Shown piece by piece: positions 25,374-26,561 of a stretch of 64,000 bases of DNA. The position numbers were made by a program, and so were the translations under genes. The stretch lies in NCBI GenBank assembly GCA_000004695.1, contig CM000154.2, positions 2,240,001-2,304,000 on the forward strand. Direction: 5' to 3'. Source of the DNA: Dictyostelium discoideum (taxonomy: Eukaryota). The notes beneath the pieces are model-generated. The model was not told the DNA's origin. It did not search any database and was given only the letters and a program-made list of their open reading frames with translations. How positions within the stretch are numbered: position 1 is the stretch's first letter; each line of letters opens with the position of its first letter.

Positions 25374-25446
25374 GGGGATGTAGCTCAGATGGTAGAGCGC
25401 TCGCTTAGCATGCGAGAGGTAAAGGGATCGATACCCTTCTTCTCCA
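25374..25446 (+). tRNA. tRNA-Ala (anticodon AGC)
   Basis: GGGGATGTAGCTCAGATGGTAGAGCGCTCGCTTAGCATGCGAGAGGTAAAGGGATCGATACCCTTCTTCTCCA. A box is TAGCTCAGATGG, anticodon loop TTAGCAT (AGC), and the Ala identity pair G3:U70 is present. B-box-like GGGATCGATACCC. A T8 Pol III terminator follows. One U6-U67 mismatch in the acceptor stem and A54 in the T-loop are atypical. Confidence 0.8.
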
Positions 25447-25473
25447 TTTTTTTTGCCTAAAAATTTAGATTAA

Positions 25474-25485
25474 GGGTTCGACTCC
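25474..25485 (+). promoter_or_regulatory. ex-B box (extra B-box, GGGTTCGACTCC) ~28 bp downstream of the tRNA
   Basis: B-box consensus GGTTCGANTCC copy outside the tRNA body. Such external B boxes downstream of Dictyostelium tRNA genes are known and are the landmark near which TRE3 elements integrate. Confidence 0.6.
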
Positions 25486-25499
25486 TTAAAATATTGTTA

Positions 25500-26526
25500 A
25501 CATTTGAAAAAAAAAAAAACCGTACCGCGATCAAGAGGATACAAGATACACGTGAAAAAAAAAAAAAACCGTACATAAAAAACGAAAATGGACAACCACT
25601 TTCACTGGCAGAATGGTATACCACAATTCAAGACCAAAATCCAACCATCCCTAAAACGGAATTCCAATCATCTCTAAACTTAAGAGGCTACAGCTATAAT
25701 CAACTCTTCAACAACATACTGAAGATAAAAGACCCTAAAACAAGAGACACAATGTTTAGATTCCATGCCAGATGCCTTCCAATAAACTACCTTCACAACA
25801 AACAATGCCCACTCTGCAAAGAAGATATGAGCAAAGACCCATACGGTCACCTGTTCTTCTCATGCAAGAAAACAAAACAATTCATAAAAATAAATAAATA
25901 AACTCAAAAATTTCATCTATATTACCACAGGCAAAGGTAAAAACTGGCACCATACAAGAATTAGGCAAAATAACAATTTCATTAATAGAATAACTCCAAA
26001 ATTGTCACCGACAGCCAAAAAAGATCAAGAAGTGAATGCAGATTACGCCAACCACAGATTCCACAAAGAATACTTTGAATGGAACTATAAAGCAATAGAC
26101 TATGATCATTCGCATATAGAAACCTAATGGCCCTTATCCTCCACAACATTTGGATTTGGATTTGCAATCAAATATACAGTGAAGATCCTTTAACAGATGA
26201 ATCACTATCATACAGCTCCCTTCTAAAGAAATGGCACAAATTGGCCACTCTAGAATACATCAAAAAAGCAAAAGATCTGAAAAACTTATCAGCAAAAGAC
26301 CATAATAACTTCAAAGATCCTAAGATCCTTCTCACTTCAACGATCAAGCTAAGAAAAACAACAGCTAATTACTATTGTATTCCAGAATCATCTCTCCCAA
26401 ATATTATATCTTTTGATCAATTCATATGATTAAAATAACCCTTCAGCTTAAATGATAAGCATTTAAATAAATATTAAATAAAACTCGTATTAACACAGAT
26501 GGACATATATCAATCTTGTTAATCCA

Positions 26527-26561
<35 letters not shown>
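25500..26561 (+). mobile_element. 5'-truncated 3' fragment of a TRE3-type (tRNA-gene-targeted) non-LTR retrotransposon, ending in a ~32-nt poly(A) tail
   Basis: Begins ~50 bp downstream of the tRNA-Ala, right after the ex-B box. The GC-richer ORF fragment has rare host codons (CTG, CTC, ACG, GGC) and ends ...MFRFHARCLPINYLHNKQCPLCKEDMSKDPYGHLFFSCKKTKQFIKINK*. This is the H-x-C-x2-C...H...C Cys/His motif typical of the ORF2 C-terminus of non-LTR elements. About 600 bp of 3' module follows (including track ORF 26127..26429), then A32 at 26530..26561. The subfamily (TRE3-A/B/C/D) is not determinable here. Confidence 0.55.

Follow-up and report, generated by a model that had tools for sequence, protein, structure and literature searches.

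The tRNA-Ala(AGC) locus

The stretch of Dictyostelium discoideum DNA analysed here, 64,000 nt of contig CM000154.2 (the window), contains a single tRNA gene detected by ARAGORN, a tRNA-Ala(AGC). It is followed on the same strand by a free-standing external B box (ex-B box) and then by ~1.06 kb of GC-richer DNA (GC 0.33 vs 0.15-0.18 in the flanks). Judged from its sequence, this GC-richer DNA is the remnant of a TRE3-type retrotransposon of the class without long terminal repeats (non-LTR). The remnant retains the 5' leader, the last 955 nt and the A31 tail of the element (Table 1). An earlier, sequence-only reading of the window had described the 73-nt tRNA gene with its G3:U70 pair and T8 terminator, the B-box copy ~28 bp past it and a TRE3-type element behind the tRNA gene. 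ARAGORN, Rfam and the pairing read-out agreed on the tRNA gene, the terminator and the B-box copy were found where they had been placed, and the element has the tRNA gene's orientation and a distance typical of TRE3. Its full-length relatives have two open reading frames (ORFs), ORF1 and ORF2. The sequence-only reading had also called the element 5'-truncated. This label does not hold: 25520-25558 is 100% identical to element nt 1-39, and the copy is therefore an internal-deletion derivative.

The cloverleaf of the tRNA-Ala, read out by pairing, contains a U6.U67 mismatch in the acceptor stem as well as the G3:U70 pair. The tRNA-Ala gene at 6743-6815 of a comparison locus, L008, is identical to the window gene, U6.U67 included, which indicates that the mismatch is the normal sequence of this gene family. 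The ex-B box lies in the 12-nt string GGGTTCGACTCC (25474-25485, 27 nt past the tRNA), and with up to one mismatch allowed it was the only match to GGTTCGANTCC in the 64 kb, an exact one. Similar boxes begin 30-36 nt past the tRNA 3' end in L001, L002, L007, L008 and L010. No TRE-like sequence was found in the 252 bp upstream of the tRNA-Ala gene.

Table 1. Features of the tRNA-Ala(AGC) locus and the TRE3 copies behind it (window coordinates; UTR, untranslated region).
Feature	Position	Strand	Basis or remark
tRNA-Ala(AGC) gene, 73 nt	25374-25446	+	ARAGORN; Rfam RF00005 tRNA model, 58.1 bits
Internal B box GGATCGATACC (T-arm)	25425-25435	+	Pattern read-out; also present in the L008 tRNA-Ala
T8 RNA polymerase III terminator	25447-25454	+	T-run location
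External B box (ex-B) GGTTCGACTCC	25475-25485	+	28 nt past the tRNA 3' end
AT-rich host spacer TTAAAATATTGTTAACATTT, 20 nt, ex-B box to element	25486-25505	.	No TRE3 copy matches
5' leader, G + A13	25506-25519	+	Other copies have G/A6-7 right before CCGTACC
TRE3 5' UTR nt 1-39 (CCGTACCGCGATCAAGAGGATACAAGATACACGTGAAAA)	25520-25558	+	100% to full-length copies
A10 extension and second CCGTAC (5' UTR nt 1-6)	25559-25574	+	Cut-off second leader unit; left edge of the internal deletion
C-terminal ~284 codons of TRE3 ORF2	25575-26429	+	Reference nt 4260 onward; tblastn 98-99% to P0001, three frames
TRE3 3' UTR, 102 nt	26430-26531	+	Aligned with five other copies
Poly(A) tail, A31	26532-26562	+	Poly(A) stands at this position in the other aligned copies too
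Inverted degenerate 3' fragment of a second TRE3 subfamily (P0008/L010-like)	26671-26875	-	64% over 211 nt to L010

Internal deletion of the element

As a reference for the complete element we used a composite of the L002 copy with its private 72-nt deletion patched from L007 (5,244 nt including A20; tailless, it measures 5,224 nt, or 5,231 nt with a G-A6 leader). Against this reference, blastn aligned the window copy in two blocks with nothing between them, nt 1-39 (25520-25558, 100%) and nt 4260-5244 (25574-26551, 97.9%). The missing part, nt 7-4259 (~4.25 kb), takes with it ORF1, the endonuclease and the reverse transcriptase (RT), and tblastn with ORF1 and with the N-terminal 957 residues of ORF2 gave no match anywhere in the window. 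The deletion junction, nt 6/4260, reads CCGTAC/ATAAAAAAC with a single shared C, and the string that spans it is AAACCGTACATAAAAAACGAAAATGG.

The 5' piece carries the terminus of the element. Window 25513-25558 is 100% identical to L002 6554-6599, which there continues into the 5' UTR and ORF1, and the number of chance matches to the 5'-terminal sequence expected in the window is 0. The 5' end of the element is CCGTACCGCGATCAAGAGG, and the same terminus opens three other copies: copies 1 and 2 of L002 and the L009 copy, which starts with CCGTACCGCGAT... The leaders of these copies are GAAAAAAA-CCGTACC in L002 copy 1, where it lies inside an insertion bounded by a target-site duplication (TSD), GAAAAAA in L002 copy 2 and A6 in L009. 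The window copy holds the leader 1.2 times: G-A13, nt 1-39, ten extra A and CCGTAC again. The two A13-CCGTAC 19-mers form an exact direct repeat (25507-25525 and 25556-25574, 49 nt apart). Two CCGTAC motifs had been reported earlier as motifs of the 5' junction; they are exact repeats as described, but they are the element's own 5' end and not junction motifs.

Homology to coding sequence starts at 25575. The Cys/His peptide HARCLPINYLHNKQCPLCKEDMSKDPYGHLFFSCKK, encoded at 25764-25871 and containing the CCHC motif CPLCKEDMSKDPYGHLFFSC (25806-25865), had been taken for the C-terminus of ORF2. The peptide is indeed encoded there, but ~185 more codons follow up to 26429, behind two frameshifts. 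These are a +4 insertion (TAAA, ~25888-25891) and the loss of 10 nt between 26103 and 26104, both private to the window copy in the multiple alignment. The in-frame stop at 25899-25901 is not the true end of ORF2, the stop codon of which lies at 26427-26429. The proteins P0001, P0002 and P0031 extend ~185 residues further, to ...SLPNIISFDQFI, and the window encodes all of this extension, in three frames; the long C-terminal extension is also kept in P0002, the D. purpureum homologue. The GC enrichment and length ascribed to the element by the sequence-only reading were confirmed, and its A32 tail is an A31. Because all catalytic coding sequence is lost and two private frameshifts have been added, the window copy is, as its coding content indicates, a dead fossil, predicted to be unable to move itself or to make protein.

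Family assignment

The conceptual translation of the ORF2 tail over three frames matched 18 proteins, all from Dictyostelium. P0001 was matched at E=3e-149, P0005, P0011 and P0016 were 92-99% identical to the window translation, and one D. purpureum protein was 47% identical over the full length. At the DNA level, identity to copies in D. discoideum assemblies is 98-99% over the 3' 985 nt of the element, and the copies in L001, L002, L007, L008 and L011 match it at 97-99%. A metagenome scan with the 5'-terminal 30-mer returned no match. Eight of the 11 members of protein cluster 1 are AX4 proteins, and one member, P0031 from UniParc, is an ORF2 of this family 1260 aa long.

The architecture of the family can be read from a near-full-length relative, copy 2 of L002 (9459-14607). 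It has an ORF1 of 417 aa and, in the -1 frame, an ORF2 that overlaps ORF1 by starting on its stop codon. ORF2 matches RVT_1 at residues 524-771 (E=6.5e-34), followed by CX2CX10HX4C; a weak match to Exo_endo_phos at residues 8-253 (E=0.002, below the Pfam cut-off) spans the whole profile. The order of two ORFs with endonuclease, RT and CCHC region is seen in this relative; of this, nothing but the CCHC region and C-terminal tail is left in the window copy. TRE3 elements have been described as L1-like, with two ORFs, an APE-RT-zinc finger ORF2 and the use of an internal or external B box (PMC5911963; PMC5006619). In all the features examined, the family of the window copy agrees with this description.

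Within TRE3, the copy probably belongs to subfamily TRE3-A (formerly Tdd-3), as suggested by length, copy abundance and the -1 frame. The published consensus lengths are 5,229 for Dd_TRE3-A, 5,279 for TRE3-B, 4,734 for TRE3-C and 1,559 (partial) for TRE3-D (PMC5006619, Table 1), and the reconstructed family measures 5,224-5,231 nt. Like TRE3-A, it lies downstream of tRNA genes in their orientation, ends in poly(A), has an ORF1 and a -1-frame ORF2 with endonuclease, RT and CCHC region, and seems to outnumber the other TRE3 types among the matches. The window copy itself differs from TRE3-A in lacking nt 7-4259, in its 1.2-fold leader with A13/A14, in its two frameshifts and in having no visible TSD. 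TRE3-B, -C and -D share the targeting and the ORF2 architecture, and sister subfamilies occur in L001, L009, L010 and the fragment at 26671-26875. However, over the regions compared, the three other tRNA-downstream subfamilies are 36-72% identical to the window family in amino acids and ~61-69% in nucleotides, and the published lengths of TRE3-B, -C and -D fit less well.

We also considered TRE5 (DRE) and rejected it. TRE5-A, including the non-autonomous TRE5-A.2, resembles the window family in its L1-like ORF2 (endonuclease, RT and zinc finger), its tRNA targeting and its internal-deletion derivatives. Unlike the window copy, which is downstream and co-oriented, TRE5 elements lie ~50 bp upstream of tRNA genes in opposite orientation. 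The comparator was an opposite-strand, RT-encoding element upstream of the tRNA-Ala in L008, a putative TRE5-like element; its ORF2 is 27% identical to that of the window family, in an alignment that ends before the C-terminal 180 aa. Skipper-2 (DGLT-P) likewise occupies sites downstream of dictyostelid tRNA genes, but it is an LTR element of the Ty3-gypsy type with an integrase, and it has neither poly(A) nor an APE-type ORF2.

Distance from the tRNA gene and its B boxes

TRE3 elements characteristically lie ~40-150 bp downstream of a tRNA gene, in the orientation of the tRNA. The first base of the window element, 25506, is on the tRNA strand, 59 nt past the tRNA, 20 nt past the ex-B box and 81 nt from the start of the internal B box. 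These values correct the earlier placement of the insertion, ~45-50 bp past the tRNA and practically on the ex-B box. In five comparison loci the first TRE3 copy behind the tRNA gene is likewise downstream on the same strand, 55-124 nt past the tRNA: L001 (tRNA-Leu(UAA)), L002 (tRNA-Leu(CAA)), L007 (anticodon not read), L008 (tRNA-Ala(AGC)) and L011 (tRNA-Ser(UGA)). L011 also holds a minus-strand copy, and the L009 copy is in a locus without a tRNA gene.

The starts of these copies fall at two spacings. Measured from the internal B box, the distance is 76-77 nt in L001 and 77 nt in L011, a locus that has no ex-B box. Copies in L007 and L008 start 86-94 nt from ex-B-like boxes, and L002 is intermediate. 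The window copy belongs to the class spaced from the internal B box, and the two spacings, 76-81 nt from the internal box and 86-94 nt from the ex-B box, agree with the proposal in the literature that the internal and the external box can each set the distance. TRE3-A copies have been reported 14-228 bp downstream of tRNA genes (PMC5006619, Table 1). The sequence-only reading had held this copy to be specially informative about target selection. Its 81-nt spacing matches L001 and L011 and its distance falls within that published range, so the position is unremarkable.

Several of these loci carry further features of their own. L002 6510-15462 is a three-copy TRE3 array behind the tRNA-Leu(CAA), in which copy 1 is internally deleted and copy 3 is 5'-truncated. 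At L009 5561-7891 lies a TRE3 copy with reference nt 1-2330 only; the absence of its 3' half is unusual for a target-primed insertion, and immediately before the copy comes the poly(A) region of an element from another TRE3 subfamily. Just upstream of the 5'-truncated TRE3 of L007 there is a 25-bp direct repeat, AATTATTAAAGCTCATCAATAATAA, in two copies 10 bp apart (9912-9971), which may mark the site of an insertion that was later lost.

Target-site duplications

When the flanks were compared, no TSD was recognisable around the window copy, only low-complexity or chance matches; the sequence-only reading had proposed to look for one flanking 25490 and 26561. The longest non-homopolymer string common to both flanks is AAAAATTTA (25459-25467 and 26558-26566), the first copy of which lies upstream of the ex-B box, and this match is probably due to chance. 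A TSD consisting of A only may be hidden in A13/A31, or one of 3-4 nt, (A)TTT, may surround the copy. TSDs were seen at other loci: 12 bp in L008 (TATTCATTTCCA), 8 bp around L002 copy 1 (CAAGATAC) and ~11 bp around the whole L002 array (AAACAAAAGTT).

Insertion history

We consider it very likely that a TRE3 element, most probably TRE3-A, integrated downstream of the tRNA-Ala(AGC) gene in its orientation and has become a fossil with an internal deletion, with a single insertion as the preferred history. Following the literature, integration would have occurred by target-primed reverse transcription: the ORF2 endonuclease would nick the DNA at a defined spacing from a B box, presumably bound by TFIIIC and RNA polymerase III factors, and the poly(A) RNA would be copied from the nick, leaving a TSD of 8-12 bp. 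After this one insertion, the leader unit would have been duplicated, by slippage or an RT template jump from one to the other of the two GAAAA runs flanking nt 1-34. The interior would have been lost at a microhomology of 1 nt (C), either when the RT switched templates or when the DNA was deleted later. We prefer this combination of slippage or jump with deletion because it takes the fewest events.

Several points weigh against this account. The A-runs of the window leader are 13 and 14 nt long vs 6-7 elsewhere, and a simple deletion does not explain the duplication. Pfam did not recognise the C-terminal region of ORF2. The TRE3-A label was reached from length, abundance of copies and the -1 frame, and TRE3-B (5,279 bp), which fits less well in length, is a possible alternative. 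The part given to TFIIIC and the B box in TRE3 targeting comes from the literature, where the experiments have, to our knowledge, been made on TRE5-A only. Finally, no TSD is recognisable, and we therefore infer both exactly where the element inserted and that it did so in a single event.

The best of the other histories is a nested insertion, which we nevertheless regard as unlikely. A second TRE3 would have entered the 5' UTR of a first, full-length one near its nt 34-39, and a deletion would then have run from nt 7 of the newer element to nt 4259 of the older one, so that the 5' piece and the 3' kilobase would come from the older element and the middle G-A14-CCGTAC from the newer. Such nesting does occur in L002, where copy 1, bounded by the 8-bp TSD given above, interrupts the 5' UTR of copy 2 at nt 30, and there it produces the same succession of leader, partial 5' UTR, leader and CCGTACC. 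At the window locus, however, it takes three events rather than one or two, and what follows A31 is TTTATAAACTG; neither nt 40 onward of an older element nor a TSD of an inner insertion is present.

It is considerably less probable that the 1.06-kb unit was retrotransposed as such, as a non-autonomous deletion derivative mobilised in trans, comparable to TRE5-A.2. The copy does keep both termini, as this would need, and is ~1% diverged from other copies. Loss of the interior with both ends preserved is also seen repeatedly, one instance being L002 copy 1, the insertion of which left a clean TSD. Yet the nt 6/4260 junction is found in none of the six other loci examined, and no TSD is visible around the window copy. 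If a short TRE3 lineage of this kind were real, the duplicated leader and the nt 6/4260 junction would record RT template jumps at RNA 5' ends.

We give very little credence to a 5' transduction, in which AAAAATTTA would be the true TSD, the insertion would lie ~21 nt past the tRNA, and the ex-B box and spacer would have been brought from a donor. Its appeal lies in AAAAATTTA being the longest non-homopolymer string in both flanks and in the published TRE3-A distances, which reach down to 14 bp (PMC5006619). An A/T 9-mer adjoining a poly(A) is, however, expected here by chance (a rough estimate of ~0.1-0.2, not computed), and the ex-B box stands 28 nt past the tRNA, the native distance that five other tRNA genes also show; an imported box would have to match it by coincidence. 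Least credible of all is a plain 5'-truncated TRE3 with host DNA or untemplated filler at 25506-25574: most TRE3 copies are 5'-truncated, for example those in L001, L007, L008 and L011, but this idea is refuted by the 39 nt with 100% identity to the full-length 5' terminus, for which there is no chance expectation in the window. The single insertion followed by internal deletion is accordingly the history we retain.

Surroundings of the element

Behind the window copy, the inverted fragment listed last in Table 1 is a separate, older insertion. Its local alignment score was 47 vs a maximum of 28 in 200 shuffles, and its peptide traces, NLTCKVNCI and ESVLPNLVSLDHYL, match LTCKVYCIPESVLPNIISFDQFI of P0008. 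The L010 copy of this P0008-like subfamily sits behind a tRNA-Ile; no minus-strand tRNA remnant was found to the right of the inverted fragment. Convergent TRE3 copies occur in L011 too. An AT-rich near-palindrome at 26834-26983, with 75-nt arms that are 75% complementary, is probably low-complexity intergenic DNA.

The locus is flanked by a gene for a multi-pass membrane protein (23874-25121) and by a two-kinase-domain gene (29413-33543) with one intron (29887-30000). A homologue search with the upstream gene (23874-25118) found only a Logan protein, the 2-kb contigs of which stop at the tRNA. For the downstream kinase, a search at E<=1e-100 gave no match, a threshold that is probably too strict. 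The scarcity of matches to the flanking genes probably reflects a limit of the search and its threshold rather than biology.

Elsewhere in the window, the C/D-box small nucleolar RNA (snoRNA) DdR7 lies at 9624-9721 on the minus strand, identical to the Rfam consensus at 98/98 positions, which points to D. discoideum or a very close relative as the host. A GC-richer patch at 28050-28520, in AT-rich intergenic DNA, is not repeated in the window or in L001-L007; there, Rfam gave only a chance-level match to mir-460 (E=0.38, 18.6 bits vs a gathering score of 52).

Significance for TRE3 elements

The element class is long known and stands in a textbook position. Descriptions of TRE3 elements downstream of D. 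discoideum tRNA genes go back to 1999, and a TRE is present at 61% of the tRNA genes. The value of the locus lies in its accurate annotation: the copy has an internal deletion but keeps its 5' terminus, its ORF2 tail is longer than first read and bears two frameshifts, and an inverted second TRE3 fragment follows just downstream. It also adds a small data point on targeting, with the window copy, L001 and L011 at 76-81 nt from the internal B box and L007 and L008 at 86-94 nt from the ex-B box.

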